Below are positions 4,208 through 35,269 of a stretch of DNA of 64,000 nucleotides, piece after piece; the stretch's first letter is position 1, and each line of letters begins with the position of its first letter. The notes beneath the pieces were generated by a model. It saw only the letters and a list, made by a program, of their open reading frames with translations. It ran no database searches and was not told the origin of the DNA. The stretch comes from Candidatus Hydrogenedentota bacterium (GTDB taxonomy: Bacteria; Hydrogenedentota; Hydrogenedentia; Hydrogenedentales; JAGMZX01). Made by a program: the position numbers and the translations under genes. Where the stretch lies: the NCBI GenBank assembly GCA_018005585.1, contig JAGMZX010000009.1, forward strand, positions 6,185-70,184. The letters run 5' to 3'.

Positions 4208-5293
4208 ATGCCGTTCAGCGATTACAGCATGGCCCTGCCGCGGCGGGAACGCGAGAAAGCGCGCAAGAATACGGCGATTCTTGACGCGGCCCAGCGGGTA
4301 TTCCAGCGTCGCGGCTACCGTCAGGCCACCATGGAAGAGATTGCCCGGGAATCGAGTTATTCCGTGGGCACGCTGTACAACCTGTTCCGGGACAAGGATG
4401 ATTTGTACAACCAAGTCATCGCCCGGATCGGGGAAGCGGTCGTTTCGCGCGTGCAAGGGGCGGTGCTCGCGGAACGTGACCCGGAAAAGGCGATAGAGAC
4501 GCATATCCGTCTGCGCCTGTGCAACTACTTCAACGACCGGCTCTTCTTCGAGACCTTTTCGTGTCCTCCGGAACTCGGGGTACAGCCGGAACCCGGCCGT
4601 TTGGAAGCGGGCGTGCTGGCGTGTTACCGGAAATACCTCGAAGTTGCGGAGCAGTTGCTCGAACGCGTTGCGGGCCCGAAGGGCGAGGGGCGCCGCGATG
4701 ATTTTCGCATGGCGCTGGGTCTCGAAGGCATCGTAACCGCGTACATGGGCTACTGGGCCGGGCCGCGCCAGTCCGACTCGCTTACAGCCATCGCGCACCA
4801 GATACACACGATGCTGTTGCGCGGCGTGGGCTCAGACCGCTTCCGTCAGGCGGCCGCGCCGGATGCTGCGCCGGCCGCGTTGCGCGAGGTTCATCTTTCA
4901 AGTTACGACCTTGAACGGCTTCGGGAACTCATTACGGTGGCGCGCGATTTTGGCGGCGCCGCCTGTTCGGCGTATCTGGACGTGCTCGACGCGGAACTGA
5001 ATCAGGCCCGGGTTGTGCAACCGCGCGAAGTGCCGCCGAACTTGGTCACAATGAATTCGCGCGTACGGCTGCGCCATGCCGACACCGGGGAAGAACGGGT
5101 TTGCGTACTGGTGTTTCCAAAGGACGCGGAAGTGCGCGAAGAAAACGTGTCCATTCTCAGCCGTCTGGGCACGGCGCTGCTGGGCTTTCGTGTGGGCGAC
5201 ATTATCGAATACACGTCGACCCGGGGTACGGCGCGCTACCGCATCGATGCGCTGCTGTACCAGCCGGAAGCCGCCGGAGACTACCACTTGTGA
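4208..5293 (+). CDS. Fusion regulator: N-terminal TetR-family HTH domain plus C-terminal Rnk/GreA-like (Gre-factor C-terminal FKBP-like) domain
   Basis: TetR_N motif 'ILDAAQRVFQRRGYRQATMEEIARESSYSVGTLYNLFRDKDDLY'. The C-terminal 130 aa 'VTMNSRVRLRHADTGEE...VSILSRLGTALLGFRVGDII' aligns to the standalone Rnk at 23169..23564 ('VTMNSRVQLRDV...VSVLAPLGAAILGYRVGDTF'). Confidence 0.75.
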   Translation: MPFSDYSMALPRREREKARKNTAILDAAQRVFQRRGYRQATMEEIARESSYSVGTLYNLFRDKDDLYNQVIARIGEAVVSRVQGAVLAERDPEKAIETHIRLRLCNYFNDRLFFETFSCPPELGVQPEPGRLEAGVLACYRKYLEVAEQLLERVAGPKGEGRRDDFRMALGLEGIVTAYMGYWAGPRQSDSLTAIAHQIHTMLLRGVGSDRFRQAAAPDAAPAALREVHLSSYDLERLRELITVARDFGGAACSAYLDVLDAELNQARVVQPREVPPNLVTMNSRVRLRHADTGEERVCVLVFPKDAEVREENVSILSRLGTALLGFRVGDIIEYTSTRGTARYRIDALLYQPEAAGDYHL

Positions 5294-6730: not shown

Positions 6731-9091
6731 TTACTGCGCCGGGAATTCGTAAAGGCACACGCTCAGAGGCGGGAGTTGTAGCGTTTGCGTCCCGCCGGAG
6801 ATCTGCTCTTCCTGGACCGTCACGAGAGGCGGTTTGCCCGGCTCGTTGTGCGCCATAGGGCCGGGCCCGGTAAGCACCCAGCGCCTGCCCGCGCCGGTAT
6901 TGCAGCCCGACACTTCGAGTTCCAGTTCCCGCGCTTCGATGGCCGGATTCACGACGGCGACGGTCAGTGAACCGCGGTCTTCGGTCCATGCGGCGGCAAT
7001 GTCGAGGTACGCGGGCGCATCGCTGACCTCGACCGGGATCGCGCCGTAGTGGTTGCGGTACAACTGAAGCACGAGCCCGGTTGTGTCGAACGCGGCGGCG
7101 GTCTTGCTGGTCTTGACGCAACCGATGACATTCACCGTCTGCGCATAATTCGCCATGTAGACGATGTCGCTCGATCGAAAGTATTCATGGAGACCCATGG
7201 CGACGCCGACCGCGTCCTTGAGAAAGTATGGCGTGCCGAGTTCGCCGTAGACGTGGTCGCCGTACCAGTAGTTCCATTCGTCCATGCAGATGGGGACCTG
7301 CTTGCCCGCGAGAGCCGGGATAGTCTTGTGCGCCTCGCGGTGCGCGCTGACCTTGGCGCGAATGGACTGCCGGATTTGGCGCACGTGTGTCGAGACCCGC
7401 GGGGAACCGCCGCAGTAGAAGTGCTCGCTGAGCAGGTCCATGTGGTCGGCGCATTCGGCGAGCATGGTGTCGGACCACTTGCCCGTTGCGCCGACCGCGA
7501 CCAGTTTGACGGACGCGTCCGCGGCGCGCATGGCTTCGGCGAACGCGTTGTGTTTGTTCACGTATTCCTCGAGCGGCATATGGCCGAGCTGCCAATCACC
7601 GTACATCTCGTTGCCGATGCCCCACCATACGACGCCATACGGCTCCGGGTGGCCGTGTTCCGCGCGCAACCTGCTCATCGGCGAATCGGCCGGACCATTG
7701 ACATATTCGAGTTCTCCGAGCGCGAGCGACAGGTCGCCGAGGCCGCTGTTCACGACGATGTACGGCTCCGCGTTCACTTCGCGGCAGAACGTCAGGAATT
7801 CGTTGATGCCGAAATCGTTGTGCTCAATGCCCTGCCAGGCCGGGTTCTTGCGCGGCGGGCGCTTGTCCGGGTCGCCAATGCCGTCATTCCAGTTGTAGCC
7901 GCTGACGAAGTTGCCGCCCGGCCAGCGATAGATGGGCGCGTTCAATTCCTTGAGCACGGCGAGCGTGTCGGCGCGCATGCCGTGCACATGATCGGCGGGC
8001 ATGAGCGACACCGCCCCGATGTCGGCGCGGCCCGGGCCGCGCACGAGGACCTCGAGCGCGCCGTCATCGGTGTCCGCGCCTGCGGTGAACGAAAGGGGAT
8101 AGGTGCGGAATGCGCCGGCAAAGTTGCCGAGCGTAATCGTCTGCCGCTGCGCGGGTGCGGCGCCCCACGCTAGGCTTACTTCAACGGACGCGAGGCTGCC
8201 CGAGCCCGCCAACACGATGCGGCCCGTATAGACCTTGCCGGATACGAGCCCGAGCCCGCCATGGGCGATGCCCGCGGGCGCGGTCTTGGCCTCGATGCGC
8301 GGCATGTGCTCGCCCACGTAGGGCGCTTCCTGCGTCATGGTCACGGCGTTCACGTCGCCCAGCTTGCGCCAAGGGGACTCTTCTTCCCCGATGCCGTAGA
8401 AGAATTTGCGGTCCTCGAGCATCTCGGCCCAGATACCGCCATAGATACACCGGCCCAAGTGCTCGATGAACTGACCGTAGAGGTACTTCGAAATGAGGGC
8501 GCCGGTCTTTGAAGTCTCGATTCGCGCCACCGGTTGAGACGATTCCGTCTTCAGCAATGCGAGGTCGAGGTCATCGAACCACGCCTTGCCCGAGGCCGTG
8601 CCCCAACCGCCCAGCAGGCAGTTGATCTGGACTTCTTCGTTCTCCTCGCTATCGAACACGAGTTCGACGCGCGTCCAATCGTGCGTGCCCGTGACGGCCC
8701 CGGTTTGCAGTGGCTGCATATTGTGCAGATTCAGGAGCGCGCCACGCCCGTTCTGCGTCGTGACGTTCTGTGTCTTGACCCAGCCGGTCAGGCGGTACTG
8801 CGACCATGGTTCGATTCCGGCCGTGACACACCAGGCGGCGTCCGCGCCATCCTCGGAAGCGACAGCCACGCAGTGCCCGCCTCCGCGCCCGCCTTCCTCG
8901 AACGTGAAGTCCGCCTTGCCGCCCCACGTCTGGGTCGTCCAGCCCGCGGGACCATCACCGCCCTCTTCTTCGAAGGATGCGTTCTTGATGCTGTCCGCCA
9001 TGACGCGACCTTTCACCGGGAACACTATGCAGAGCGTCAGGACCGCTACGAACAGAAATCTCGCGGGCACACTCGCGACGGGCACTCTCAT
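6731..9091 (-). CDS. Secreted GH51 alpha-L-arabinofuranosidase with N-terminal CBM4/9 carbohydrate-binding module
   Basis: Signal peptide, CBM-like N-terminus ('NASFEEEGG...AGWTT...WFDDLDLAL'), and the GH51 catalytic block ('IYRWPGGNFVSGYNWNDGIG', 'WGIGNEMYGDWQLGH'). Confidence 0.8.
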   Translation of the reverse strand: MRVPVASVPARFLFVAVLTLCIVFPVKGRVMADSIKNASFEEEGGDGPAGWTTQTWGGKADFTFEEGGRGGGHCVAVASEDGADAAWCVTAGIEPWSQYRLTGWVKTQNVTTQNGRGALLNLHNMQPLQTGAVTGTHDWTRVELVFDSEENEEVQINCLLGGWGTASGKAWFDDLDLALLKTESSQPVARIETSKTGALISKYLYGQFIEHLGRCIYGGIWAEMLEDRKFFYGIGEEESPWRKLGDVNAVTMTQEAPYVGEHMPRIEAKTAPAGIAHGGLGLVSGKVYTGRIVLAGSGSLASVEVSLAWGAAPAQRQTITLGNFAGAFRTYPLSFTAGADTDDGALEVLVRGPGRADIGAVSLMPADHVHGMRADTLAVLKELNAPIYRWPGGNFVSGYNWNDGIGDPDKRPPRKNPAWQGIEHNDFGINEFLTFCREVNAEPYIVVNSGLGDLSLALGELEYVNGPADSPMSRLRAEHGHPEPYGVVWWGIGNEMYGDWQLGHMPLEEYVNKHNAFAEAMRAADASVKLVAVGATGKWSDTMLAECADHMDLLSEHFYCGGSPRVSTHVRQIRQSIRAKVSAHREAHKTIPALAGKQVPICMDEWNYWYGDHVYGELGTPYFLKDAVGVAMGLHEYFRSSDIVYMANYAQTVNVIGCVKTSKTAAAFDTTGLVLQLYRNHYGAIPVEVSDAPAYLDIAAAWTEDRGSLTVAVVNPAIEARELELEVSGCNTGAGRRWVLTGPGPMAHNEPGKPPLVTVQEEQISGGTQTLQLPPLSVCLYEFPAQ

Positions 9092-9188: not shown

Positions 9189-10625
9189 CTAAAGGGCGGG
9201 CGCCGGCAGAAGCAAGTACCAGTGGCCGCCGACATTGAAGATTACGCGAGGGCCAAGCCCGGCCACGGCCGCGATTTCAGGATGATTCTTCAACAGCACG
9301 CGATAGAAGCGCGTGTCGCGGCGCAGTTCCGTGAGCGATTCGTCCGCGTAGTCTTCTTGCTGCCACGTGTCGCCGCATAACGTGAAGACGTGCCCGTTTG
9401 CTTCGCGAGTGGCGCCCGCTTCCACAGCTTGGGGGGAATCCTGCAAGGGCGCAGGAGCGGCGCCAAGCTGCGCGGCAGGCGGCGCGGCCTTGGGCGGCTG
9501 CGCTTCCGTGGCATGGTCCCCGCGCATGGTTCCGCCGTAGCCGCCATACCCGCCGCCGTATCCCCCAACTGTGGGCGCTCGGCGGTGCCTCTCAAGACGG
9601 TCTTCACCGAGAGACGGCACGGACTGCGGCGCGGGGAGCGGCTCGGGCACGGCTACGACCGTCTCCGCCTGGGCCGGGGGCGTTTCAGCAAGGACGGGCG
9701 GAGGTACTTCCTGCTCTATTGGTGCGGGCGCGGACACCGCCGCGACCGGGGGCTGGGCAGGCGCTGGCGCAGGAGCGGGTTCGAGACCACCCAAATCCCG
9801 CGCCGCCGCGCCAATGCGTGCATCAAATCGGATATCCCCGGTCTCCTGCTTTTCAGTTATTCCATCGAGGCGGACCGGCGGCTGCGGTGCGGCGCGAGGC
9901 GCCGCGACAGGAGGCGGGGCCTGCATCGGGATTTCCATGGCCGGCGAAGGAGCAAGGCGGGCAGGCGGCATATCCGCGGACGGCTCCGGGACCGGCGGCT
10001 CGGGCGCTGGGGTATCGGAGACTTCGGGCGCAGCCTCCGGCGCGGTGTCCAGCATAACGAAGTAGGTCCCTTCCGGCACGTGCGGCCGTCCGGACACTTC
10101 CGGCGCGGTAATCATTCCATCGCCCCGGCTTGGCTGCGGCGCGCCCGCGGCCGTTTCCATCTTCGCCTCGGGCTGCGCGCCCGGAATCCGCTGCGCTCTG
10201 GCCGCGTCGGCGGCGGCTTCCGTGGCTGCTTCCGGCATCGGCGACGGAGGCGCGGCTTGCTCCCGCGCCAATTGCGTCCGTGTTGACACGTAGCTTGTGC
10301 GCGAGAACATCAGGCCCATCACGACGAGGAAACACGCTGCGGCGGCAAGCACCGGCCACAAGCGCACGGGCGCGGCCCGGGGACGCCGGAACCGGATGCG
10401 CACGCCGCGCATTTCGTCCAGCACGGCCGCTTCCAGCGCTTCTGGGGCGCGCACGGGCTCCAACTCACGGTATAGCGCGTCCACGCGGCGCCACGCGTCG
10501 AGTTCCACGCGCAATGCCGGGTCCGCCGCGATACGCGCCTCGAACGCCGCCCGCGCCCCGGTGTCCATCTCGCCGTCGAGGTAGGCCGAAAACTGCTCGC
10601 GTATGTCTTCGTGCTCGCCGTTCAT
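9189..10625 (-). CDS. Membrane anti-sigma factor. It has an N-terminal anti-sigma domain, 1 TM, a long Pro/Ala-rich periplasmic low-complexity region with a GGYGGGYGGYGG tract, and a small C-terminal domain.
   Basis: N-terminus 'FSAYLDGEMD...RIAADPALRVELDAWRRVD', TM 'LWPVLAAAACFLVVMGLMF'. Start is 3 nt after the ECF sigma stop. Confidence 0.7.
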   Translation of the reverse strand: MNGEHEDIREQFSAYLDGEMDTGARAAFEARIAADPALRVELDAWRRVDALYRELEPVRAPEALEAAVLDEMRGVRIRFRRPRAAPVRLWPVLAAAACFLVVMGLMFSRTSYVSTRTQLAREQAAPPSPMPEAATEAAADAARAQRIPGAQPEAKMETAAGAPQPSRGDGMITAPEVSGRPHVPEGTYFVMLDTAPEAAPEVSDTPAPEPPVPEPSADMPPARLAPSPAMEIPMQAPPPVAAPRAAPQPPVRLDGITEKQETGDIRFDARIGAAARDLGGLEPAPAPAPAQPPVAAVSAPAPIEQEVPPPVLAETPPAQAETVVAVPEPLPAPQSVPSLGEDRLERHRRAPTVGGYGGGYGGYGGTMRGDHATEAQPPKAAPPAAQLGAAPAPLQDSPQAVEAGATREANGHVFTLCGDTWQQEDYADESLTELRRDTRFYRVLLKNHPEIAAVAGLGPRVIFNVGGHWYLLLPAPAL

Positions 10626-10628
10626 GTC

Positions 10629-11252
10629 TTACAACACGCCATTTTGTTCCAAGCACGCGCGCAACAGGCGCCGCGCCTGATTCAGCCGCGATTTCACGGT
10701 GCCCTCAGGACATTCGAGGGCGTCCGCGATCTCCTCGTAACTGCGCTCATCGAAAATCCTAAGCACGAACGCCAGCCGGTATGCGTCAGGCACCTGTTCC
10801 AGGCACGCCTCCAGCGCCGCCTGCAATTCACCGCGCTGCGCACGCTCGCGCGGCGTATCGCAATCCGCCGCGGCCGCCTGCGCCGCGCCCGGCGCCGCTT
10901 CCTCGAGCCCTTCGAGCGAAATCGCCTGGCCCCGGCCCTTGCGGCCCCGGTCGCGCACCCGGTTCCGCGCAAGGTTCACCGCGATCCGGTACAACCATGT
11001 ATACACTCGCGCCTCGCCGCGGAAATCGGCCATGCCGCGATACGCCCGCAGGAACACCTCCTGCGCTACGTCCAGCGCGTCCTCGCGGTTGCCCAGGAAG
11101 CGATACAGCACCGCGTAGACGCGATCTTTGTACCGGCGCATGAGCGCCTCGAACGCCGCGTCGTCGCCTTCCTGACACGCCGTCACGAGCGCCATGTCCG
11201 CTTGCCGCGTGCCTTCGCGCAATGCTTCCACGGACCGCCTGACTCCGTTCAT
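10629..11252 (-). CDS. ECF (sigma-70 family group IV) RNA polymerase sigma factor
   Basis: Region 2 'DDAAFEALMRRYKDRVYAVLYRFLGNREDALDVAQEVFLRAYRG' and region 4 'SYEEIADALECPEGTVKSRLNQARRLL'. Internal ATG at 11252 chosen for a 208-aa product. Confidence 0.85.
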   Translation of the reverse strand: MNGVRRSVEALREGTRQADMALVTACQEGDDAAFEALMRRYKDRVYAVLYRFLGNREDALDVAQEVFLRAYRGMADFRGEARVYTWLYRIAVNLARNRVRDRGRKGRGQAISLEGLEEAAPGAAQAAAADCDTPRERAQRGELQAALEACLEQVPDAYRLAFVLRIFDERSYEEIADALECPEGTVKSRLNQARRLLRACLEQNGVL

Positions 11253-11558
11253 ATCTTTGGACACCGGTTGGGGAAAAGGGTTCGCCGCCATTCTACACGC
11301 CCCGGCGCAGGCAAGGGAACCCGCGCGGTGATTCACGACCCCGGGAACACGAGGGCGCCGCACCCGTCTGCAGTCTTGGAGGCAGCGACAGGGACGTCGC
11401 GTCCGCGGGGAGAATTGTTTATAGTGTCATTCCTTATGCGCAACGACATAATTCCCCTGTTCGTTGTCCAAGCTTCAGCGTGCGGATTTTCGGGGACAAC
11501 CTGACGGTTGAACGACGAACAAGGGGCGTCGATTGTGACGCCGTGTATAGAGGCAAGA

Positions 11559-16519: not shown

Positions 16520-19500
16520 TCAGTTGGGCGCAAAGCAGAAGCCGTCTTCCGTGCCGGAATCCGGGCACGGATAGCAGCCGCCCGCATTGTAGAACTGCAC
16601 GACCCGGAGCAGTTCGGACAAGTCGATCCGCCAGTCCGCGGGGGCGTAGTCGAGGTCGTGCGGCGGGCACCATTGGCCGCCCGGCCCGGGCGCGTATCCA
16701 TCTTCCGTGCCCAGTTCGCAATGGTGGCTCTTCGTGTTATAGAACTGGATGACGCGCAGCAGCTCGGCGAGGCCGATGCGGAAATCGCCGTTCTGGTCCG
16801 CGGTATGGCCGCAATCATCGAGGATGATGACCGTGCGTACGACGGGTTCGGCTTCGTTCCCCTGGCTGTCTGCGACACGGTAGGTGACGGGGTATTCGCC
16901 GGGTGAGTGCTCCACAATGCTGCTCTCGGCCCGGATGAAGGCGGTCCTGTCGCCGTCTACGAGGTCGAAGGCCATCGCGCCGGGGTCCATGAAGTCGTCG
17001 AAGCAACGCAGCGTCACTATGGCGTCGCCTATGAGCACGAGCGTGGGCGCGGTGGAATCGGCGACCAGCACATGGCGGACGGACGGCTGGGCCTCGTTGC
17101 CTTCCGAATCCGACACCCGATAGGTCACCGTGTATGCTCCCGGCGTGTCTTCATCCACAGTGTTTTCGACCTGCAGCAGCGCCGTAAGGTCGCCCTGGCG
17201 CGAGTCCGCGGCGATGGCGCCCGGGTCGGCATAGGCCGTGCCCGCTTCGTGCAGGAGAGTCTCCGGCCCGATTAAAGTAATGACCGGCGGCGTCGTGTCG
17301 GCCACATGGACCAGGCGCTGCGCGTCGGCCGTATTGCCCGACGCGTCTTCTACCGAATAGGCGACGGTGTAATCGCCCAGCACGGCGACGTTCACGTTGT
17401 CCGTCACCACAATGGCGGCGGTGAGGTCGCCATCCACGGTGTCCGCGGCGGTGGCGCCCGGGTCGGCATAGGGGGTCGCTGCTTCATGCGTCAGTTCAGA
17501 GGGGCCTGTGACCGTGATTATGGGGGCGGTCGTGTCCACGACATGAACGGCGCGCAACGCTTGTGCCGGATTACCAGACGAGTCGGCCAGTGAATAGGTG
17601 ACCGTGTAATCACCCGGAATCGCCGGGTTCACGTCATTCGCGGTCTGTATGGCCGCGGTGAGATCGCCGTCGTAGTTGTCGAACGCGGTGGCACCTGGGT
17701 CATTGTAGGGTTCGGGCGCTTCGTGGGTCAGGGGATTGTCTCCCGTGACGGAGAGCACGGGCGGGACCTCGTCCACGACATGAACCGTGCGCACGGCCGG
17801 GATGGACACATTCCCCGCGGCGTCCTGCGCGGTATACGTCAACACGTACGCGCCCAGTATCTCCGTATCGGCCATGCCGATGACGACTACGGCCGCGCTG
17901 AGGTCGCCGTCGAGCGCATCCCACGCCACGACCCCCGGTTCTGCGAAGGGCTCTCCGACGGGGACGGACATGTCCGCAGGCCCCAGGAGCGTCACGAAAG
18001 GAGGTTGCGTGTCAACGACATGGACAGTTCGCGAGACGGTTACCGCATCGTTGCGGTTGGCGTCACGCACGTCGTAGGCCAGCACGTACGTGCCGGGCGT
18101 CATGACATCCACGCTCCCCGTCACCCGTATCTCGGGGGTGATGTCACCGCTGAAGGAGTCCCACGCGGTCGCGCCGGGGTCATTGAACGGTTCGGCCGCC
18201 TCGACGGTCATTTCCGCGTCTCCGAGCATCGTGATGACGGGGATTGTGCGGTCGCGCACGTCCACGATGCGCGTCGCCGTCAGCGCAAAGTTGCCCGCGG
18301 TGTCCTCGACATCATAGGTGACGCTGAACGTGTCGATCAGGCTCGGATTGACGTTGTTCGTCATGTTCAAGCGTTCGCTGATGTCGCCCTCCCGGTCGTC
18401 CATGGCAGTTGCGCCGGGATCGAGGTACGGCTCCCCTGCTTCGGCCGTCAACCGGCCCGGTCCGTTCAGCGCGATGACGGGGGCTACCGTGTCGATGATG
18501 AGTTCATCGGTGGTGCTGTCGTGCCCTTCGCGGTTGTACGCGCCTACGGCCCGGACGCGCACGTCGTACACGCCGTCCGGCAGCGGGTCGGGCACGTTAT
18601 GAACCCACTCGTTGTTATCGACGAGGACAGCGCGCCACGTGGCGCCGTCCAGGCTCAGCCCCAGCGCCACCGAGTAGCGCACCGTGCCGGTAATGGCCGG
18701 GCGGGAATCGTTGGTGATCAACGGGTCGACCGTCAGTTCGGGCGCGGGCGGGTAGTAAGAGCCCAGCACGGCGCGGACGTATTCGGGCACGGTTGCGTCG
18801 AGGCCGCCTATGTTCTCGAATTCCTCATAGTTCAGCGCGCCGTCCAGGTCGAGGTCGCCCAGGGACGACAACGGCAGGTCGGCGCCGTTCGAGTAGGGGG
18901 CATAGTCGCCCTCGAGCGACAACCCCGCTTTCAGGATGTCGGCAAAGGCCTGGTCGAGCGTCGCCAGCGCGGCCATGATGTCGAACACGGGGGCCAGGAA
19001 CGGGATACCGGGTTCCACACGGAGCAAGGCCAGATTGGCGTCATGAACCTGTTGCACCGTCTCATGGAGCGGGTGATGTTCATCGCACAAGATAGCCGCG
19101 AGCACGGAAATTTCGTAGCGGTCCGGAATCATGCTGACGTCCGCGTCGGCGGTTTGCCAGACGTCCTCCTCGAACGCGAATTCATAGAAATCGCGGCCTT
19201 GGCTCTCGAACGTGACCGCCACGTCGCAATTGGGAATGGCGGCATCCGGCGCCCGGTTCGGGTCGGAGGCCTCGTCGGCATAGACCTCCGGCGAACCGCC
19301 GCGTATGAACGTCCACGTGAATTCGCGGTCATTGGAGGCGCCGTCGCCGTCCAGGTCGGACGCGGCGGCAAACGGCTCTGCGCTTTCGTACTGGAGGCCG
19401 GCGATTGGGGCGGTCAGGGCCATGTCCTGGACGATGCTGTCTGCGGCTTCCTGGGAGCTTGCGGCGAACAGGGACAGATACCCGATATAGGGCAGGAACA

Positions 19501-21580
19501 GTTCCGCGGCGGGGTCTGCTTCAAGCGCGGCGCGATTGTCCGCGTATACGAGGGCCAGCGGGTCATGGAGCGGGTGCCTCCCGTCGCAGAAGACCCGGCC
19601 CAGCAGCGCAAGTTCGTAGCGGTCAGGAATGCCATTGTCACCCCAGTCCGCGTCTTTCCATTCGATACCCTGCTGCAACGCGACGAAGAATGCCTCTGCC
19701 TCGTCATCGAACACGCTCGGATCCGGGCACGTGGGCAGGTCGTCGGGGCCGCAGCCGGCCGTGGATGCCGCGATGGCGTATTCGACGTGGGCGCACTCCT
19801 GGTCTACAACCCAGTCATATTCGAACAGGTTCGAGATTTCGTCGCCGTCCGGGTCGCCGAGGGACGCAAGCGGAAACGCCATGTCCAACTCGAAGACGCT
19901 GTATGCCGCGGTGAGAGAGAGCGCGGAAACGATGCCGTCGCGCAAGTCAGGCGATATGGCGCAGAACGCTGCAATCGCGTCCGTATAAGGTTCCAGCGCT
20001 GCAAAGCCGGGCTCCGATTCGAGTGCGGCGGCGTTGGAGGCGATAGCGGCCTGAAGCGGGTCATGTCCGGGATATGACGTGTCGCAGCACAGGCGCGCGG
20101 CGAGAGCGAGTTCGAAACGGTCCGGAATGCCGTTGCCGTCCAGGTCAGCGAAAGGCCAAGCGCCGCCGAGTTGTGCGTCATAGAGCGCGTTGCCCTGCAT
20201 TTCCAGAGCCGTAGCTTGGGCGCAGTCCAACAGGCCGCCGCCGAGCCAATAGGCTTGGACACCGCGGAAACTGCCATCGTCCAGGCGCTTCAGCGGATAC
20301 CAGACCGCGTCGTAAATCGTGTCGTCGTCCACGAGGTCGAGGGCGACCGTGCCCGCGCCCGTCATGCCGGAAACGGTGACAAAACAGGTGGCGTCCGCGC
20401 CTGACATGTCCGAAATCACGGCATCGGATACACTGGCCGAAGTGCGCACGGAGAAATCCGTGACATCGACACCGGTAACGGGCTCGGTGAACTTGACCTC
20501 AAAGATGACCTCCGGCGCGTCCGTCGGATTAGCGGCTTCCGCCAAAGGGCGAATACTGGCAACCACGGGCGGGGTGGAATCCGCGAGCCAGGCCGCGTAG
20601 CACTGGCGCACCGCGTTTTCCATGAACGTCAGGAAACCCTCCGCATTCAGGTGGAGCGGGTCCATCTCGCCGTCATCTATTTTCATGACGATACGCGGGT
20701 TGTACAGGTCTGGCCTGCCATTCGGGAAATTGGCGTAGCCGTTCTCCGGCCCGTCGGGTATGCCGGCTTCGCCCGGTTCCACCCCCTCGGCAGGCACGCC
20801 AAAAACGTGCTGGACATAGCCGAAATTGTGGATGTACGTGACGCGGCCGGGAAACTCTTGCGCGAGTTCAATCTTGCGCCGCTCCAATTCGGCCCAAATG
20901 TCGTGTACTTCCCGGACGATTTCGAGCACTTCCTGCCGGTTGGCGGGTATTGGATAGCCCCAGTAGGTGACCGCCCAGTGCGTGATGCTTTCGTAGTCCC
21001 AGACTTCGCCGAAATCGTTGATCATGAAGCCTTCGTACAAGTTGACGTAATCGTAGCCCAGCAAGGCCACGCGCACGTCCGGGCGCTGGTCGAGGCAGAA
21101 CTGCACCACGTTCCGGATGTGGCCGATGATTTCGGCCATCATCGTATCGACCTGCGCCGGGCTCATGAATTGTTTCCATGTGTGAACGATGTCGTTGCCG
21201 CCCAGGCTTACGTGGCAGATATCGAGCGTGGGCAAGGCAGCCAGCCGGTCCGCAATCTTCTGAAGCTGCTCCGGCGTGTCCCAGCCTTCCGCGAAGATAT
21301 TGGTCAAACCGATACTGCCATCTTCGCGGTACTGCCCGAGGTCGAATTCCGGGCGGGCAAGGACTTCCTCGAGCGCGGGCGGCGATTGCAGCGCGTAGGG
21401 GAAAAACACCCAACTGTCGCCAACGTCCAGGATGCGCGCGATATCCCCCCGCGCGCATACCGCGAAGCAGCATAATGACAGCACGACACCGCACGACCGC
21501 CGAAACGCATCCCGCTTGCCAACTGCGTTCCGCGCGCGCCTTGCCTTGCCGCACCACACGCTCCGCCGCTGCATTCTCAC
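16520..21580 (-). CDS. Giant secreted multidomain protein (1686 aa). Domains in order: SGNH/GDSL hydrolase domain; three ~140-aa repeats flanked by Dx[DN]xDG calcium-binding motifs; an Ig-like domain; 7 tandem DUF5011-like ~77-aa repeats; C-terminal pair of dockerin-like repeats.
   Basis: 'ILDVGDSW' (GDS) and 'HVSLGGNDI' SGNH blocks. Repeats 'DLDGNGIPDRFELA..CD..HPLHD' appear three times. Seven repeats of 'DxxxPxIxLxG...xExGxxYxDPGATAxDxxDGDLT' follow. C-terminus has 'DQNGDFRIGLAELLRVIQFYN' and 'DWRIDLSELLRVVQFYN'. Confidence 0.8.
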   Translation of the reverse strand: MRMQRRSVWCGKARRARNAVGKRDAFRRSCGVVLSLCCFAVCARGDIARILDVGDSWVFFPYALQSPPALEEVLARPEFDLGQYREDGSIGLTNIFAEGWDTPEQLQKIADRLAALPTLDICHVSLGGNDIVHTWKQFMSPAQVDTMMAEIIGHIRNVVQFCLDQRPDVRVALLGYDYVNLYEGFMINDFGEVWDYESITHWAVTYWGYPIPANRQEVLEIVREVHDIWAELERRKIELAQEFPGRVTYIHNFGYVQHVFGVPAEGVEPGEAGIPDGPENGYANFPNGRPDLYNPRIVMKIDDGEMDPLHLNAEGFLTFMENAVRQCYAAWLADSTPPVVASIRPLAEAANPTDAPEVIFEVKFTEPVTGVDVTDFSVRTSASVSDAVISDMSGADATCFVTVSGMTGAGTVALDLVDDDTIYDAVWYPLKRLDDGSFRGVQAYWLGGGLLDCAQATALEMQGNALYDAQLGGAWPFADLDGNGIPDRFELALAARLCCDTSYPGHDPLQAAIASNAAALESEPGFAALEPYTDAIAAFCAISPDLRDGIVSALSLTAAYSVFELDMAFPLASLGDPDGDEISNLFEYDWVVDQECAHVEYAIAASTAGCGPDDLPTCPDPSVFDDEAEAFFVALQQGIEWKDADWGDNGIPDRYELALLGRVFCDGRHPLHDPLALVYADNRAALEADPAAELFLPYIGYLSLFAASSQEAADSIVQDMALTAPIAGLQYESAEPFAAASDLDGDGASNDREFTWTFIRGGSPEVYADEASDPNRAPDAAIPNCDVAVTFESQGRDFYEFAFEEDVWQTADADVSMIPDRYEISVLAAILCDEHHPLHETVQQVHDANLALLRVEPGIPFLAPVFDIMAALATLDQAFADILKAGLSLEGDYAPYSNGADLPLSSLGDLDLDGALNYEEFENIGGLDATVPEYVRAVLGSYYPPAPELTVDPLITNDSRPAITGTVRYSVALGLSLDGATWRAVLVDNNEWVHNVPDPLPDGVYDVRVRAVGAYNREGHDSTTDELIIDTVAPVIALNGPGRLTAEAGEPYLDPGATAMDDREGDISERLNMTNNVNPSLIDTFSVTYDVEDTAGNFALTATRIVDVRDRTIPVITMLGDAEMTVEAAEPFNDPGATAWDSFSGDITPEIRVTGSVDVMTPGTYVLAYDVRDANRNDAVTVSRTVHVVDTQPPFVTLLGPADMSVPVGEPFAEPGVVAWDALDGDLSAAVVVIGMADTEILGAYVLTYTAQDAAGNVSIPAVRTVHVVDEVPPVLSVTGDNPLTHEAPEPYNDPGATAFDNYDGDLTAAIQTANDVNPAIPGDYTVTYSLADSSGNPAQALRAVHVVDTTAPIITVTGPSELTHEAATPYADPGATAADTVDGDLTAAIVVTDNVNVAVLGDYTVAYSVEDASGNTADAQRLVHVADTTPPVITLIGPETLLHEAGTAYADPGAIAADSRQGDLTALLQVENTVDEDTPGAYTVTYRVSDSEGNEAQPSVRHVLVADSTAPTLVLIGDAIVTLRCFDDFMDPGAMAFDLVDGDRTAFIRAESSIVEHSPGEYPVTYRVADSQGNEAEPVVRTVIILDDCGHTADQNGDFRIGLAELLRVIQFYNTKSHHCELGTEDGYAPGPGGQWCPPHDLDYAPADWRIDLSELLRVVQFYNAGGCYPCPDSGTEDGFCFAPN
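16820..18470 (-). repeat. Intragenic tandem array (about 7 units of about 230 bp) encoding the DUF5011-like repeats of the giant protein. Boundaries are approximate.
   Basis: Periodic protein motif 'DPGATA.D..DGD' and recurrent DNA strings (for example 'gcccgggtcggcatagg' at about 17221 and about 17461). Confidence 0.55.
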
Positions 21581-22433: not shown

Positions 22434-22936
22434 ACAATTGCATTCAAACCCGCGCGCATGACGACGTGCCGGAAGCGTTCAATCTAGGGCAACGCGCCAC
22501 GGCTATGCAACCTCTTGCCGGATGAGGTGTGACATCATGGAAAGACCCGCGCTGAGTCCAAATGAAAATGGCCACTCAAGGGGACGCGTGCAGAATAGGG
22601 GCAAACAAGCCGGACGCTCGTCCTCTGACAGCCCGAGAATGGGAGGGACTGTCACGTCTCCGGTCGAACGCACGGAGAGGCATGACCGGTCTAGGGAGGT
22701 TTGCCTGGACCGCGTTTGCCTTTCTGGTGTCTGGGCTTGGGTTGACTAAGAGGCGAGAACCTTATTACCATGAATTCAGGTTCAGTCTTGAATATGCGTT
22801 CAGTACCCAGGAAGGATGCGGAGTATGGCATCTGGCCAAAGAGCACGAGAACTTGTACGAACCTGCGGCTGGCCCCATCCTGGGTGCCGCCAAGTGCAGC
22901 TCTGGCAAGGAAAAGGTATCAGCACAGAAGTGTCGT

Positions 22937-22969
22937 GGCCCCGTCCCGGAGACCGGGGCCGTTTTGTTT
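22937..22969 (+). terminator. Rho-independent terminator-like hairpin on the plus strand (GGCCCCG-tcccggagac-CGGGGCC followed by GTTTTGTTT)
   Basis: 7-bp GC stem with a T-rich tail, read directly. Located in the 0.8-kb lower-GC gap between rbr and rnk. Confidence 0.5.
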
Positions 22970-23168
22970 CCTGCACGGGGATGTCATGTTGCGTATGCCG
23001 GAAGGTTGCGCGGCGCGGCGCGCCGCATGACAGACACGTGTACACACCCTTTAGGAATGCCGGCCTTTAAAGATGGGTGCGGCGATGATATTCCGCGGAG
23101 CCCGTGTCTGCATGACTCCGGCAGGGTCTGCCGGTGCTTTCTGGAAAGCTATTGGAGGAAATCCGAGC

Positions 23169-23564
23169 ATGGCTAAGCAGATTCACATCACCGCGCAGGA
23201 CAGGCAGCGGCTGCTGGAATGCCTCGCCGTGGTGCACGAGTTTCCGGACAAGCGTGACCTGCCGCATATCCGGCAGCTGGAGGAAGAGATTGCGCAGGCA
23301 CAGATAATCATCGATGCGCTCATGACTCCCGAGGATGTGGTCACGATGAATTCGCGCGTACAGCTGAGGGACGTTACCGCGGACAGAGACCTGGAATGCA
23401 CGCTGACGTATCCCGGTGAACGCGACCCGGACAACGAGAGCGTGTCGGTGCTCGCGCCACTGGGCGCGGCCATACTCGGGTATAGGGTGGGCGATACCTT
23501 TGTGGCAGACTTGCCCGAAGGACGGACGCAGTTCCGCATTGAGAGTGTCCGTCATCGGCCCTAG
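23169..23564 (+). CDS. rnk: Rnk-like regulator (GreA/GreB C-terminal domain protein; regulator of nucleoside diphosphate kinase family)
   Basis: 'MAKQIHITAQDRQRLLE...VTMNSRVQLRDV...VSVLAPLGAAILGYRVGD'. Confidence 0.8.
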   Translation: MAKQIHITAQDRQRLLECLAVVHEFPDKRDLPHIRQLEEEIAQAQIIIDALMTPEDVVTMNSRVQLRDVTADRDLECTLTYPGERDPDNESVSVLAPLGAAILGYRVGDTFVADLPEGRTQFRIESVRHRP

Positions 23565-29302: not shown

Positions 29303-31573
29303 ATGAAGCAGAGTACCCGATTTTTGTGCCTGGCCGGGATCCTGGCGATTGTGCTGGCGGCCGGTTGCGCCAAGGACGTACACCAGTTCGAGCCGTTGCC
29401 GGCGGGAAGCGTCGGTGCGGCGGACCTGGCGGCGCCGGCCGAGCCGCGTTCTGTGACGGAACTGCTGCGCGACGCGGAGAAGGCGTTCCAGGAGGCGAAT
29501 GCGGCGCAGGAACGGGGCGACCACGAGGCGGCCCTGCGCCAGTACACGGTGATGCTCGAGCTGCTCATCGAGGCCGACCTGGACCCGGGCATCTTTTACT
29601 CGCTCCGGGGGGAATTTGAGACGGTCTTGAATACATCGACGCACCACGCGAGCGCATTCGACCACCGGCGGCGCCACCTTTTCTCAGAAGACGATTTTGG
29701 GGCCCTGCAAGGCTATAGTGAAATCCCGATACCCTTTCCGCTGCCGGAGCGGGTCTTGGCGGAGATAGACGAAATCCAGACGGGCTACCCGAAGAATTTT
29801 CAGGCGGGCTTGGACCGGGCCCAGAGATATTTGCCCTATATCCGGGAGGAATTGCGCAAAGCCGGCCTTCCGGAAGAGGTTGCCTGGGTGGCCATGGTCG
29901 AGAGCCTGTTCACCCCGAAGATTGTGTCGCGTGCGGGCGCGGGCGGCATGTGGCAGTTCATGAAGAGCACGGGCAAGCGCTACAACCTGCGCATCGATAG
30001 CCATGTTGACGAACGTTACAATTGGCAGAGTTCAACACGGGCCGCTATCGGCTATTTGACCGACCTCTACCGGATGTTCGACGGCAACTGGGGGTTGGCC
30101 GTTACCGCGTATAACATGGGTGAAGGCGGGCTCGAACGGGCGATTGCGGACAATGGCGGCGACCGGAATCTCTGGACACTGCTCGAGACAGCGCCCGCAG
30201 CGAATCGTATCCCGCTGGAAGCCAAGAAGTACTATTCGCGATTTCTGGCGACGCTCATCGTGGCCAGCAACCCGGAACGCTACGGATTCCGCACGAACCC
30301 GCAGCCGCCGGAGAACACGGTACGCCTTGCGGTCAAAGGCATGTATTCGCTGAACGAGCTGGACAAAGCCATGGGCCTGCCAACGGGTACGCTCGAGGCG
30401 CTGAATCCCGACCTGGTCCAGCGCGTCACGCCGCCGACGGGCGAGTATCCCGTCGCCGTGCCGGTCGAGCATCGTCAGACCTTTCTGGCGGCACTGCAGA
30501 AGGTCAAGACGGTCCAATACGCGGGGGGCACGCACACCGTCCGCCGCGGCGAGACCGTCGCGGCAATCGCCTCACGCTATGGCGTGAGCGCGGACGAACT
30601 GATGCGGCTGAACGGGATCCGGTCCGCGCGGCACTTGCAGGCCGGTGCGCGGTTGAAGCTGCCGTCGAGCGCCCAGGTGGCGTCGAATGAGTCCGCGCAA
30701 GGCGGCGCTCCCTCGGCGATGGACACGCCGTCCCAGCCCGCGCCGCCCAAGACGTATCGGGTCAAGTCGGGCGACACATTGTATGACATTGCGCGCGCGC
30801 ATCATGTCAGCGTGAGCGACATCCAGGAGTGGAACAAGCTGGGCCGCACGGCGCGCATTCAGGTGGGCCGCACGCTATATGTGTCCGACCCGTCCTTGAA
30901 GACGGCCAAGGCCGCCCCGGCAGCCGCTCCCGAACCGGCGCCGGAACCGGAGCCTGCGCGTGGGGAAGAGGTGGCAGCGGCCAAGGACGAGCCGGAGGTC
31001 GCGTTCCATACGGTGGTTGCGGGTGAGTGTCCGGCGGTCATTGCCCAGAAGTACGGGATGAACCTCGACGCCTTTCTCGCGCTGAACCGGCTGACGAAGA
31101 CGTCGACAATCCGGGCGGGCGACAAACTGCGCGTGCGCGGCGGCGGTGGGGGCGCTGCGGCGGCGAAGGCGGCGCCCGCGCCTGAACAGCCGGAAGAGGC
31201 GAAAGTGGTGCACAAAGTGGCCGCAGGCGAGACTGCCGGCGCTATTGCCCAGAAATATGGGGTGAGCACGCGCGACCTGCTCGCCTGGAATAAGCTGACG
31301 GCGAGCTCCGTGCTCCATGTGGGCGACGAGCTCGTGATACACAGGAAAGGCGCGCCTGCCGCCGCGGAAGCGTCCTCCGAGCGGATTGTCACGGCGTCAA
31401 ATGCCTCGGAAGGCGGAACTGGGAGGATTGTGCACGTGGTGGCGCGCGGCCATAATCCCACGACAATCGCACGCCGCTACGGCGTCAGCGTCAGCGACCT
31501 GTTCCGATGGAATGAATGGCCCAGGAATCACGTGCTGCGCGTCGGCGATCAAGTCGTTGTCTTCAAGAATTGA
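29303..31573 (+). CDS. Membrane-bound lytic murein transglycosylase (MltD-like). Lipoprotein signal, SLT domain and 5 LysM repeats.
   Basis: Lipobox 'LAAGC'; SLT motifs 'WVAMVESLFTP...AGAGGMWQFMKSTG...AYNMGEG'; repeated LysM 'Y.V..GDTL..IA..Y'. Confidence 0.85.
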   Translation: MKQSTRFLCLAGILAIVLAAGCAKDVHQFEPLPAGSVGAADLAAPAEPRSVTELLRDAEKAFQEANAAQERGDHEAALRQYTVMLELLIEADLDPGIFYSLRGEFETVLNTSTHHASAFDHRRRHLFSEDDFGALQGYSEIPIPFPLPERVLAEIDEIQTGYPKNFQAGLDRAQRYLPYIREELRKAGLPEEVAWVAMVESLFTPKIVSRAGAGGMWQFMKSTGKRYNLRIDSHVDERYNWQSSTRAAIGYLTDLYRMFDGNWGLAVTAYNMGEGGLERAIADNGGDRNLWTLLETAPAANRIPLEAKKYYSRFLATLIVASNPERYGFRTNPQPPENTVRLAVKGMYSLNELDKAMGLPTGTLEALNPDLVQRVTPPTGEYPVAVPVEHRQTFLAALQKVKTVQYAGGTHTVRRGETVAAIASRYGVSADELMRLNGIRSARHLQAGARLKLPSSAQVASNESAQGGAPSAMDTPSQPAPPKTYRVKSGDTLYDIARAHHVSVSDIQEWNKLGRTARIQVGRTLYVSDPSLKTAKAAPAAAPEPAPEPEPARGEEVAAAKDEPEVAFHTVVAGECPAVIAQKYGMNLDAFLALNRLTKTSTIRAGDKLRVRGGGGGAAAAKAAPAPEQPEEAKVVHKVAAGETAGAIAQKYGVSTRDLLAWNKLTASSVLHVGDELVIHRKGAPAAAEASSERIVTASNASEGGTGRIVHVVARGHNPTTIARRYGVSVSDLFRWNEWPRNHVLRVGDQVVVFKN

Positions 31574-33259: not shown

Positions 33260-35269
33260 TTGTCGTATGACGCGTTTGTAGAGCATGTCTTGGACAGGTC
33301 TCCGGAAGAGGCCTGTTCCATGACCTTGGAGGACGTTGCGCTGTGCGCGGCGTGGTGCGAATCCAAGGGGGAGACGCTTGCGGACCAGGCGAGCCGTATT
33401 CAGGCCCTTGAGGCGCGTTGGGCCGCTGAACACGAGCCGCCAGCCACTCTGTTTGAAGGGGGCCGGCAGCAACCCCTGCTCAGGAAACTGATTGACGAAT
33501 TGCGTGCCGGGAGCCTTGCCCGGCTTGCCCGAGACGAGCTGGATTTTCTCTGCATTGCTTACGAACTCATGGGGCGCGCGGCGCGGCCCGAGGAGTTTGC
33601 CCGGCCGCGGTCCTGCATCGAACCCCACATCGAGGCTATTATCCAAAGGCGCGCGGAACTTCCGGTGGCGCCCGGGCTGCCGGCCCTGGAACACCGCGTG
33701 ACCCTGGTTCTGCCGCGGGAATTAGAGGCGGCGCCGGTGCGTCGGCTGACCGCGTTTGCCGGGATGGCCCTTCCCTTCACGGGGCATGTGCTGCAGCATT
33801 GGGGCACGGTCCGTATAGTCGGGGACGTGCCGGAAGACTGTGCGGTGGCAGTCGAGGAAGGCGACTGTTACGTGGGCGGTTACGTGCTGGGCCACGTGGC
33901 GGCTACCTTCTGTTGCGAAGTGTGCCGGAACGTGTCCGGCGCCGTGGTGGTGCGCCGGGGCGACGTATCCCTGCGCGACATCATCGACCATGCGCTTGTG
34001 GTCAGCAAGCATGGTTCGGTTCGGTGCCGCGCGTCGCGAAGGCCGCGCCTGGTCTTCGCGCAACAGCAGTTCCTCGCACGGACGTGCGTGGCGGGCGGCC
34101 TTTATTTCGCCGCGGCCGTCCAGGTGCAGGGCGAAGTCTTCGGCGGAACGCTGCACATCGCGGGTACGGGGCGGGCGTCGCGTTTTCGCTGTGATCCTGA
34201 ACACGCGCTGATGATTGTGCTGCGCCGCGGCTTGAACCACGGCGATTACGGCGAACGCATGCCGGAAGACGCGCTGCGCCTGCTATTGCGCGCGCGCATG
34301 TTGCGGCGGCGCGCGAAGGACTTGCGCGACATGACCGCAATGGCCCGGCGCGAGTCGGAGCATTTTGCGCGCAATGCCCTGCTGTTCTTGTCCGGCGGCG
34401 ACCGGGTCACGGCGTCCGTCGAGCGCCTTGAGACCGCGGAACGGCGTCTGGCGTTCCTGGACCGGGTCATCGCAGGCATGGAATCGATGATGGAACGGCT
34501 GGATGAGCGCCTGAATGCGCGCAAACTGTCGGAAGAACGGCAACCCGTTGACGAGGCCGATGACACGACGCTCGAGGCGCTGCGGCGCGAACTGCAATCC
34601 CTGGAATCCGAGGGCGGCATCGACGAGGAACTGGCGCGCAAGCGCGACGAAGTCCTCAAGCTTCAACATGACCTGCGGGACCGGCGCTCGGAGCTTGGCG
34701 AGGCGCTGGCATTGCTCCGGGGTCTGCTGGAACGCGTGTCCGCGTGGCAGAACGAACGGCAGACGCTCGCCGGCAGCATCGAAGCCATGCGCGCGGAGGT
34801 CCAACAGGGGATTGGGCGCGTGGCCGTCCTGGACCGGGCCGGCAACGGCCTGCCGGGCCTGAAAATCTTGCAGCAGGTGCTGACGGCAGCCCGCGAAGAA
34901 CCCGCAGCCTCGCCTGTGGCCGCGCGGTTGCGGCATCCTTTCATGAAGCTCATGCTGCGCAACATCGAGCAACACGGCAATCGTGTGCGCGCCTTTGCGG
35001 CAACGCTTCGGGAGACCTGCGACGAATATGCGGAGGCAGCGCGCGTCCTGCAAACAGAGCATCACGTGCAACTTCCCGGCGCGGCATCTGGCGAGGAAGA
35101 ACCCGGCGGCCGGGTCACGGGCGCGTTTGACGCAGGCGTGCGCATCTACGCGAACTTGCGCGCGTTCGAGACGGACGCCCCCGAGGGCCGCGGACGTGTC
35201 ACGACCGCCGCAAGCGCGGATTCCGTAACCTACCGGCTGGGCCACGCGGGAACGGTTGAGCGTGCCTGA
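33260..35269 (+). CDS. Large hypothetical protein (669 aa): central Gly/Val-rich beta-helix-like repeats (bactofilin/FapA-DUF342-like) followed by a long C-terminal coiled coil
   Basis: 'VRIVGDVPEDCAVAVEEGDCYVGGYVLGHVAATFCCEVCRNVSGAVVVRRGDVS' and E/R/L-rich heptad region 'ERLETAERRLAFLDRVIAGMESMMERLDERL...'. Same strand and tight spacing with mtnA and cmk. No domain confirmed; the exact start is uncertain. Confidence 0.5.
   Translation: MSYDAFVEHVLDRSPEEACSMTLEDVALCAAWCESKGETLADQASRIQALEARWAAEHEPPATLFEGGRQQPLLRKLIDELRAGSLARLARDELDFLCIAYELMGRAARPEEFARPRSCIEPHIEAIIQRRAELPVAPGLPALEHRVTLVLPRELEAAPVRRLTAFAGMALPFTGHVLQHWGTVRIVGDVPEDCAVAVEEGDCYVGGYVLGHVAATFCCEVCRNVSGAVVVRRGDVSLRDIIDHALVVSKHGSVRCRASRRPRLVFAQQQFLARTCVAGGLYFAAAVQVQGEVFGGTLHIAGTGRASRFRCDPEHALMIVLRRGLNHGDYGERMPEDALRLLLRARMLRRRAKDLRDMTAMARRESEHFARNALLFLSGGDRVTASVERLETAERRLAFLDRVIAGMESMMERLDERLNARKLSEERQPVDEADDTTLEALRRELQSLESEGGIDEELARKRDEVLKLQHDLRDRRSELGEALALLRGLLERVSAWQNERQTLAGSIEAMRAEVQQGIGRVAVLDRAGNGLPGLKILQQVLTAAREEPAASPVAARLRHPFMKLMLRNIEQHGNRVRAFAATLRETCDEYAEAARVLQTEHHVQLPGAASGEEEPGGRVTGAFDAGVRIYANLRAFETDAPEGRGRVTTAASADSVTYRLGHAGTVERA

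Follow-up and report, generated by a model that had tools for sequence, protein, structure and literature searches.

The question raised by this locus is what the short module at the C-terminus of a giant, probably secreted protein is for. The protein is encoded in a stretch of 64,000 nucleotides from a Candidatus Hydrogenedentota bacterium (contig JAGMZX010000009.1 of assembly GCA_018005585.1; below called the window), by an open reading frame (ORF) of 1686 amino acids (aa) on the minus strand at 16520..21580, with a GTG start and a stop codon at 16520-16522. From the N-terminus it comprises a signal peptide, an SGNH/GDSL hydrolase domain, a Big_5-like Ig domain, three repeats of ~165 aa, a Big_13 domain, seven DUF5011 repeats and a tail of ~98 aa. 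The ORF and the domain order had been proposed in an initial annotation made from the sequence alone; the ORF is confirmed and the order is supported. Taken as a whole, the protein is an ordinary kind of multi-domain giant surface enzyme that has already been deposited, and what is new about it are two modules without a curated model, chiefly the dockerin-like tail, which is found across the Hydrogenedentota. The reading favoured here, with a probability of roughly 0.55, is that the tail is a calcium-dependent docking or anchoring tag on a Sec-exported SGNH enzyme associated with the cell surface.

The tail (16523..16816, minus strand; aa 1589-1686) begins with HTAD and is built up by two copies of one unit, 45% identical to each other, in which a putative calcium loop is followed by a helix with the motif ELLRV(I/V)QFYN and a beta-hairpin with the motif TEDG(Y/F). 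Alignment of the family shows that the HTAD start is conserved, that E-L-L-R and Q-F-[YF]-N are invariant in both helices and E-D-G in both hairpins, and that four cysteines are conserved (1621, 1638, 1672 and 1682). The first loop, D-Q-N-G-D-F-R-I-G-L-A-E, fits a 12-residue EF-hand loop with Glu at position 12. An AlphaFold2 (AF2) model based on an alignment of 40 sequences is confident (predicted local distance difference test, pLDDT, 90.7; predicted template modelling score, pTM, 0.81) and runs loop, helix 23-35, hairpin, loop, helix 73-85, hairpin; the entering helix of an EF-hand is absent before each loop. The tail thus has what characterises a dockerin, two duplicated segments of calcium loop and helix (F-hand) in a compact module. 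A Foldseek search with the model gave no significant match, and dockerins make up 12 of the 23 matches listed.

Sequence profiles place the tail near EF-hands without assigning it to a family. EF-hand models are touched by 22 of 40 tail members (15-22 of 40 for EF-hand_6, EF-hand_1 and EF-hand_5), with a best E-value of ~1e-6, and a profile of the tail gave only weak EF-hand matches in the PDB (E>=0.09), with both loops weakly aligned to EF3-EF4 of hippocalcin. No significant match for the tail was found in Pfam and NCBIfam, including the curated CTD (C-terminal domain) and X-CTERM models. The initial annotation had described the two C-terminal repeats as resembling degenerate dockerin segments. 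The pair is real and its topology is dockerin-like, but it does not belong to Dockerin_1 (PF00404), the profile of which gave no match at E<=10 for the tail of this protein and matched only 2 of 40 relatives (best E 0.024). A literature search returned no mention of the tail motif, nor of dockerin or EF-hand tags in Hydrogenedentota.

Like the tail, type I dockerins (PF00404; 2ccl_B, 2vn5_B, 4fl4) are small modules that one organism attaches to the C-termini of many different secreted enzymes, and both have a duplicated calcium loop and helix and no helix in front. Dockerins are shorter, however, at ~60-70 aa compared with ~95 aa, and they lack the beta-hairpin with invariant TEDG(Y/F) that is added to each unit of the tail, as well as the four conserved cysteines of the module. 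Position 12 of a dockerin loop is usually Asp; in the tail it is Glu, as in EF-hands, and the first loop also fits the pattern DxNxDxxIxxxE of canonical EF-hand pairs such as those of calmodulin and hippocalcin (EF-hand_1, 5, 6 and 7). Unlike cellulosomal dockerins, the tail family has no known cohesin and is found in a non-cellulolytic candidate phylum.

A search with the tail sequence gave 74 relatives, nearly all named Hydrogenedentes, and a profile search gave at least 923 proteins, of which the named ones are almost all Hydrogenedentes or Hydrogenedens. At least 597 stretches were found in reference genomes when one genome per species was scanned, and the analyses of loci given below concern the best 80 of these. 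By metagenome-assembled genome (MAG), the best 80 loci include 29 in JAKQOG01, 22 in CAYYRW01, 14 in CAYXPO01 and 9 in CAILVY01. Because 29 and 22 of them lie in single MAGs, there must be dozens of tail copies per genome. Loci L006, L011 and L012 and some 35 others (in CAYXPO01, CAYYRW01, CAZMVU01 and CAZLII01) come from MAGs labelled 'uncultured Nitrospirales bacterium' (binchicken) that carry dozens of tails of the Hydrogenedentota type. Probably this label was entered as a placeholder or assigned wrongly, and is not evidence for the module in Nitrospirales.

The position of the tail is highly regular. In 94 of 97 tail-bearing ORFs the second motif lies 27-38 aa before the stop codon, and in all but two of these the distance is 27-33 aa. 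Most of the 62 full-length carriers have, as judged by eye, an N-terminus resembling a signal peptide, and carrier genes often stand in tandem. The cargo is diverse and largely enzymatic, with M6 and M14 peptidases, a PhoPQ-related hydrolase, and pectate-lyase-like, AA12-like and galactose-binding-like domains. The tail is strongly conserved (50-70% identity) across paralogs with unrelated cargo, which would fit a partner common to all of them.

Departures from the C-terminal position are informative. In three leucine-rich repeat (LRR) proteins (L019:6322-8481, L045:5869-7626 and L050:10504-12120, all on the plus strand) the module is N-terminal, directly after the signal peptide, and is followed by a Glu/Gly linker and then the LRRs, the inverse of the usual arrangement. 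Such proteins could act as adaptors, or as parts of the receptor type, within the same system. There are also small proteins, from short contigs, that consist of a signal peptide and the tail module alone. The N-terminal placement and the small stand-alone forms therefore speak for a binding module rather than an export signal. Relatives of the SGNH and Ig part of the protein in other lineages have, in the place of the tail, a hydrophobic helix and a cluster of Arg/Lys (RRRK), and this correspondence of position points to attachment to the envelope. These alternative C-termini gave only sub-threshold X-CTERM matches, so that a PEP-CTERM identity was rejected and they are described here as sorting-signal-like.

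At the other end of the protein, the first 44 residues (21449..21580, minus strand) form a probable Sec signal peptide, as judged by an n-region rich in Arg/Lys, a hydrophobic core at aa 30-43 and the c-region VCA|RGD. Hydropathy exceeds 2.2 for the windows at aa 27-31 (in the numbering of the 1684-aa protein described below), and the ortholog P0076 has an equivalent N-terminus. A lipoprotein signal was rejected because neither Cys37 nor Cys42 is preceded by a lipobox, and a Tat signal because the RR sits 24 residues before the hydrophobic core.

The SGNH/GDSL hydrolase domain follows (20576..21448, minus strand; aa ~45-335). It contains block I, GDS at aa 54-56 (VGDS at 53-56) with Ser56, after the predicted beta1; block III, GGND at aa 127-130 with the oxyanion-hole residue Asn129, after beta3; and block V, DPLH at aa 307-310. 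Block I is invariant in all 12 family members, the Asn and Asp of block III and His310 are invariant in the family, and Asp307 is kept in at least 90% of its members. The protein itself matches Lipase_GDSL_2 only below the threshold (E=0.001, 20 bits against a cut-off of 32.9). Its homologs match the curated models better: all 12 of the aligned members match Lipase_GDSL_2 (best 1.2e-10) and 8 of the 12 match Lipase_GDSL (best 8.1e-8), and the homologs that do so are 28-48% identical to the giant protein. Because they match, the homology holds for this protein by transitivity. A word-indexed search with the domain found only one relative, and an exhaustive search found about a dozen proteins that share the SGNH unit.

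A profile of the SGNH family searched against the PDB gave the CE3 acetyl-xylan esterase 2vpt as the best match (E=5.9e-4), in an alignment that passes through GDS, GGND and DxxH (DGLH in 2vpt); the nine PDB matches listed also include PatB, Ape1 and 3mil. The domain shares blocks I (GDS), III (GxND) and V (DxxH) with 2vpt and with the peptidoglycan O-acetyl enzymes Ape1 and PatB, and the alpha/beta/alpha order of secondary structure with SGNH/GDSL hydrolases in general. It is nevertheless very remote from the known hydrolases (13-17% identity). The family differs from them in an insertion of ~100 aa between blocks III and V with the motifs GYDY(L/V)N and Y(V/I)HNFG, and in the constant fusion of its domain to a Big_5-like Ig domain. 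The SGNH assignment of the initial annotation, which named the GDS and GGND blocks, is thus supported by the matches across the family and by the alignment with 2vpt, and the DPLH block is present in addition. With its catalytic set intact, the domain is probably an active esterase or acyl-hydrolase. The substrate might be an O-acetyl ester of a carbohydrate; this is a weak guess, for which the best, still weak, PDB relatives, being carbohydrate O-acetyl enzymes, give the sole hint.

Two relatives have other arrangements of the same parts. P0087 (974 aa) has two tandem SGNH-like domains with an Ig domain and Glu/Gly linkers between them and then the tail, and P0084 (1793 aa) has the SGNH unit, five repeats of ~165 aa and the tail. 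The SGNH unit, the ~165-aa repeat and the tail therefore recombine freely.

Between the enzyme and the tail lies a long series of domains. The first is an Ig-like domain resembling Big_5 and SbsA (20225..20575, minus strand; aa ~336-452), which is sub-threshold in Pfam (E=0.069) and had been missed in the initial annotation. An exhaustive search with the giant protein gave 4,496 significant matches (E<=0.001), and for most of the top 150 listed the best-matching stretch is this Ig region. In other giant surface proteins this type of domain accounts for as many as 33 matched stretches in a single protein. It may belong to an Ig subfamily that is under-modelled.

Three repeats follow on the minus strand. 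Repeat 1 (19730..20224; aa 453-617) has the loops DLDGNGIPDRFE (N-terminal, EF-type) and DPDGDEISNLFE (C-terminal, EF-type) and the Cys pair 453/499; repeat 2 (19229..19729; aa 618-784) has the loops DWGDNGIPDRYE and DLDGDGASNDRE and the Cys pair 618/665; repeat 3 (18725..19228; aa 785-952) has the loops DADVSMIPDRYE and DLDLDGALNYEE and the Cys pair 785/832. Their mutual identity is 32-38%, and the boundaries given by a hidden Markov model are aa 456-620, 621-786 and 788-952. Each begins with an N-terminal EF-type loop and helix (D-x-D-x-N-G-I-P-D-x-x-E...LCD), continues with a helical middle part and ends with a C-terminal EF-type loop, D-x-D-G-D-x-x-S-N-x-x-E-[YF]; an extra cysteine lies ~46 residues upstream of the Cys of "CD". 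It had been suggested that there are three repeats of ~140 aa that belong to no named family and are flanked by calcium-binding loops. The repeats exist, and no significant family match was found for them in Pfam and NCBIfam, but the period is ~165 aa and two loops lie inside each repeat. Only the loops resemble known proteins, namely EF4 of calmodulin (~1e-4) and the EH domain of Eps15 (~7e-3 to 9e-3).

The ~165-aa module is not confined to this protein. It was found in 1-6 copies in 27 retrieved proteins and in 16 of the 97 tail-bearing ORFs, often between the catalytic domain and the tail. A common origin of this repeat and the tail was rejected, since hhalign gave a probability of 8% and only the calcium loop is shared. 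At locus L001, which holds a frameshifted ortholog of the giant gene, a second large gene nearby (L001:19533-20729, minus strand) has the same tail at its end and contains a long (EG)n linker, and one stretch of it resembles the C-terminal calcium loop of the ~165-aa module.

The next domain is a Big_13 bacterial Ig-like domain (18488..18724, minus strand; aa 953-1031), which is above the Pfam cut-off (E=6.2e-8 for the match at aa 955-1031). It is followed by seven tandem DUF5011 repeats (PF16403, Bact_surface_Ig-like; 16817..18487, minus strand; aa 1032-1588) of 79-81 aa each. All seven stretches are included in a match to PF16403 that is far above the cut-off (E=2.4e-122, 399.6 bits against 27), and the seven-copy array that had been proposed is thereby supported. 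LapB_rpt_80 (9.5e-23) and OmpL47-type models also match the protein, so that seven clear PF16403 repeats and these two kinds of match are shared with repeat adhesins of the DUF5011/LapB type. Arrays of the DUF5011 type serve as stalks in large surface proteins. In contrast to RTX (repeats-in-toxin) adhesins or those of the type I secretion system, the array here separates the enzyme head from the dockerin-like tail as a spacer and does not form the body of an adhesin.

Put together, these parts suggest how the protein might work. The SGNH domain would be a serine esterase or acyl-hydrolase, with a Ser56-His310-Asp307 triad and Asn129 in the oxyanion hole, and would form the distal head. The Big_5-like Ig domain, the three helical repeats with two EF-type calcium sites each, the Big_13 domain and the seven DUF5011 repeats would make up a stalk rigidified by Ca2+. 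The C-terminus would be a module stapled by disulfides in which the two units of calcium loop, helix and beta-hairpin have the topology of an F-hand pair, and it would dock its cargo, non-covalently and in a Ca2+-dependent manner, to a receptor that the carriers share and that sits on the cell envelope or a scaffold. Docking would display the esterase away from the cell. Of this picture, the architecture, the SGNH homology with its intact catalytic set, the fold class of the tail and its distribution, position and range of cargo are shown, and the export, the calcium binding, the anchoring, the receptor and the substrate are inferred.

Several observations weigh against this reading. The second loop of the tail is non-canonical and differs from those of type I dockerins by a one-residue insertion. 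The small stand-alone forms could be partial assemblies, and those at L058 and L072 look truncated. The single-sequence AF2 model of the N-terminal domain is poor (pLDDT 48.5), although nearly all top Foldseek matches of this low-confidence model are SGNH esterases. The 20 proteins scanned in the window yielded no cohesin domain, and beside the tail genes, in ~800 kb from the best 80 loci, no gene family recurs in more than 4 of the 80. The initial annotation had held that a dockerin-like tail implies a cohesin-like partner elsewhere in the genome. Dockerin-like modules are reportedly common in genomes without recognisable cohesins, and it is therefore not safe to infer a cohesin from a dockerin.

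Other roles can be proposed for the tail itself. It might be a C-terminal secretion or sorting domain, analogous to the CTD of the type IX secretion system (T9SS) or to PEP-CTERM/X-CTERM, that is recognised by dedicated machinery and possibly removed. Such tags are likewise restricted to a lineage and found at the C-terminus of dozens of secreted proteins per genome. This explanation is favoured by the place of the tail at the very C-terminus in 94 of 97 ORFs, by the number and diversity of the secreted proteins that carry it (dozens per genome), and by the sorting-signal-like C-termini at the same position in the SGNH and Ig homologs of other lineages. We nonetheless consider it unlikely, because a C-terminal signal would be pointless in the three LRR proteins, where the module is N-terminal, and in the small secreted proteins, where it is apparently alone. 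Its fold of calcium loops and helices is also nearest to dockerins and is neither a beta-sandwich CTD nor a transmembrane signal, and no conserved processing enzyme or other cognate machinery was identified near the tail genes at the 80 loci. Somewhat less likely still is that the tail is a Ca2+-dependent glycan-binding module, similar to a lectin or a carbohydrate-binding module, that binds polysaccharide of the cell's own envelope or extracellular polymeric substances, or the substrate, and so gives a matrix- or substrate-bound enzyme. The invariant acidic TEDG and conserved aromatic residues (W, Y, F) adjoin the calcium loops, the cargo is rich in polymer-degrading enzymes, no protein partner was found beside the tail genes at the 80 loci, and Hydrogenedentota have been described as members of biofilms or mats (PMC10866078). 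The nearest folds, however, are dockerins, which bind proteins, and the conserved helices show an internal two-fold symmetry reminiscent of the dual binding surface of dockerins.

Two further explanations concern the giant protein as a whole. About 70% of it consists of Ig-like and calcium-binding repeats typical of adhesins of the RTX, Bap or LapB type, and it is very acidic (D+E 15-19% per region). It might accordingly be regarded, with the LapB_rpt_80 and OmpL47-type matches, as chiefly a calcium-stabilised adhesin or biofilm-matrix fibre in which the SGNH domain is inactive or an acyltransferase and the tail is a structural EF-hand cap. This is improbable in view of the conservation of the catalytic Ser, Asn, Asp and His across the SGNH family, the presence of the same tail on many bona fide enzymes, and a conservation of the tail far beyond the needs of a passive cap. 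It is also conceivable, since the source is a short-read MAG, that the long internal array is an artefact in which the copy number was collapsed or expanded during assembly, a risk that the initial annotation had raised. Copy number does vary between orthologs: P0076 (1606 aa), which is 81% identical and has the same architecture, is 80 aa shorter, and this fits six DUF5011 copies. The seven copies of DUF5011 in the present protein are, however, only 30-59% identical in protein, the longest DNA stretches that the repeats have in common are 53-72 nt with 60-78% identity, and Tandem Repeats Finder detected no tandem array of DNA in the gene. In two further assemblies the protein is exactly 1684 aa, and one of these, from another strain, carries 35 substitutions but has no indels; the frameshifted ortholog at L001 has the same domain order. 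With repeats so diverged and the same length in an independent assembly of a different strain, an artefact is hardly credible and the array is taken as real.

A calcium-dependent docking or anchoring tag therefore remains the preferred explanation of the tail. Beyond it, and more tentatively, Hydrogenedentota may have a phylum-specific, Ca2+-dependent system for surface display or enzyme assembly that employs a hitherto undescribed, disulfide-stapled dockerin-like module as a tag on dozens of secreted hydrolases per genome and a receptor other than a canonical cohesin, and to which the ~165-aa helical repeat with its double calcium loop would belong as another new module; we rate this wider proposal somewhat below even odds. 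If it is true, it would represent an independent 'cellulosome-like' organisation of the secretome in an uncultivated lineage of the diderm type. Members of the phylum occur widely in digesters, sediments and mats, and we know of no cultured representative. The tag is conserved on dozens of secreted peptidases, esterases and polysaccharide-active enzymes in each genome. The motif ELLR[VLI]IQ[FL][YF]N, occurring twice, gives a sequence handle for the extracellular, surface-displayed enzyme set of the phylum in metagenomes. The tail could serve as bait for the receptor, which makes a new docking system a concrete and testable hypothesis, and the two compact calcium-binding modules, which are new and have no entry in Pfam or NCBIfam, are candidates for curation. 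Should the tail prove to bind one specific partner tightly, the two would also enlarge the cohesin-dockerin toolbox by an orthogonal pair.

The gene is deposited at NCBI as MBP8128498.1 from a Candidatus Hydrogenedentes MAG, with the name "DUF5011 domain-containing protein" only. The deposited protein is the same but has 1684 aa, as its start is the ATG at codon 3 (21574), and its neighbours in the window are MBP8128496 to MBP8128508 by exact sequence match. GC content at third codon positions (GC3) is 0.79 in the frame of 16520..21580 (minus strand), which marks it as the coding frame, and the long plus-strand ORFs that overlap it are shadow ORFs of a genome with 64% GC. A scan for promoters and terminators around the gene gave results at or below chance. 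No other copy of the tail, the ~165-aa repeat or the SGNH module was found within the window.

A GH51-like gene with Alpha-L-AF_C and a sub-threshold CBM_4_9 match lies at 6731-9091, and it had been suggested, from the SGNH domain together with this nearby arabinofuranosidase, that the giant protein de-esterifies hemicellulose at the cell surface. The two genes are 7.4 kb apart, with six unrelated genes in mixed orientations between them: an unknown 478-aa protein, an extracytoplasmic function (ECF) sigma factor, an M20 peptidase, a GT4 glycosyltransferase, an ATP sulfurylase and an epimerase. The ortholog at L001 has entirely different neighbours and no GH51. An operon with GH51 was rejected on these grounds (distance, mixed orientations and the differing neighbourhood of the ortholog), and because the link does not hold, de-esterification of hemicellulose is only one of many possible functions of an SGNH enzyme.

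Some other genes in the window deserve mention. The 478-aa protein (9189-10625, minus strand) has no Pfam match and is encoded directly downstream of the ECF sigma factor (10629-11363) on the same strand; it is probably the anti-sigma factor of this sigma factor. Two plus-strand reading frames, 33260-35269 (669 aa) and 22562-23176 (204 aa), gave no Pfam match at E<=1e-4; the former has GC3 of the coding type and the latter is not among the genes selected by GC3. A 361-aa protein (4208-5293, plus strand) combines TetR_N, Rnk_N and GreA/GreB C-terminal domains, so that a repressor-type helix-turn-helix is fused to a factor of the RNA-polymerase secondary channel, which is an unusual combination. 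Finally, an SLT lytic transglycosylase with five LysM repeats (29303-31573, plus strand) has a C-terminal HTH_23-like match of E=2e-8 in which no single stretch is significant, a pairing that is odd for a periplasmic murein enzyme.

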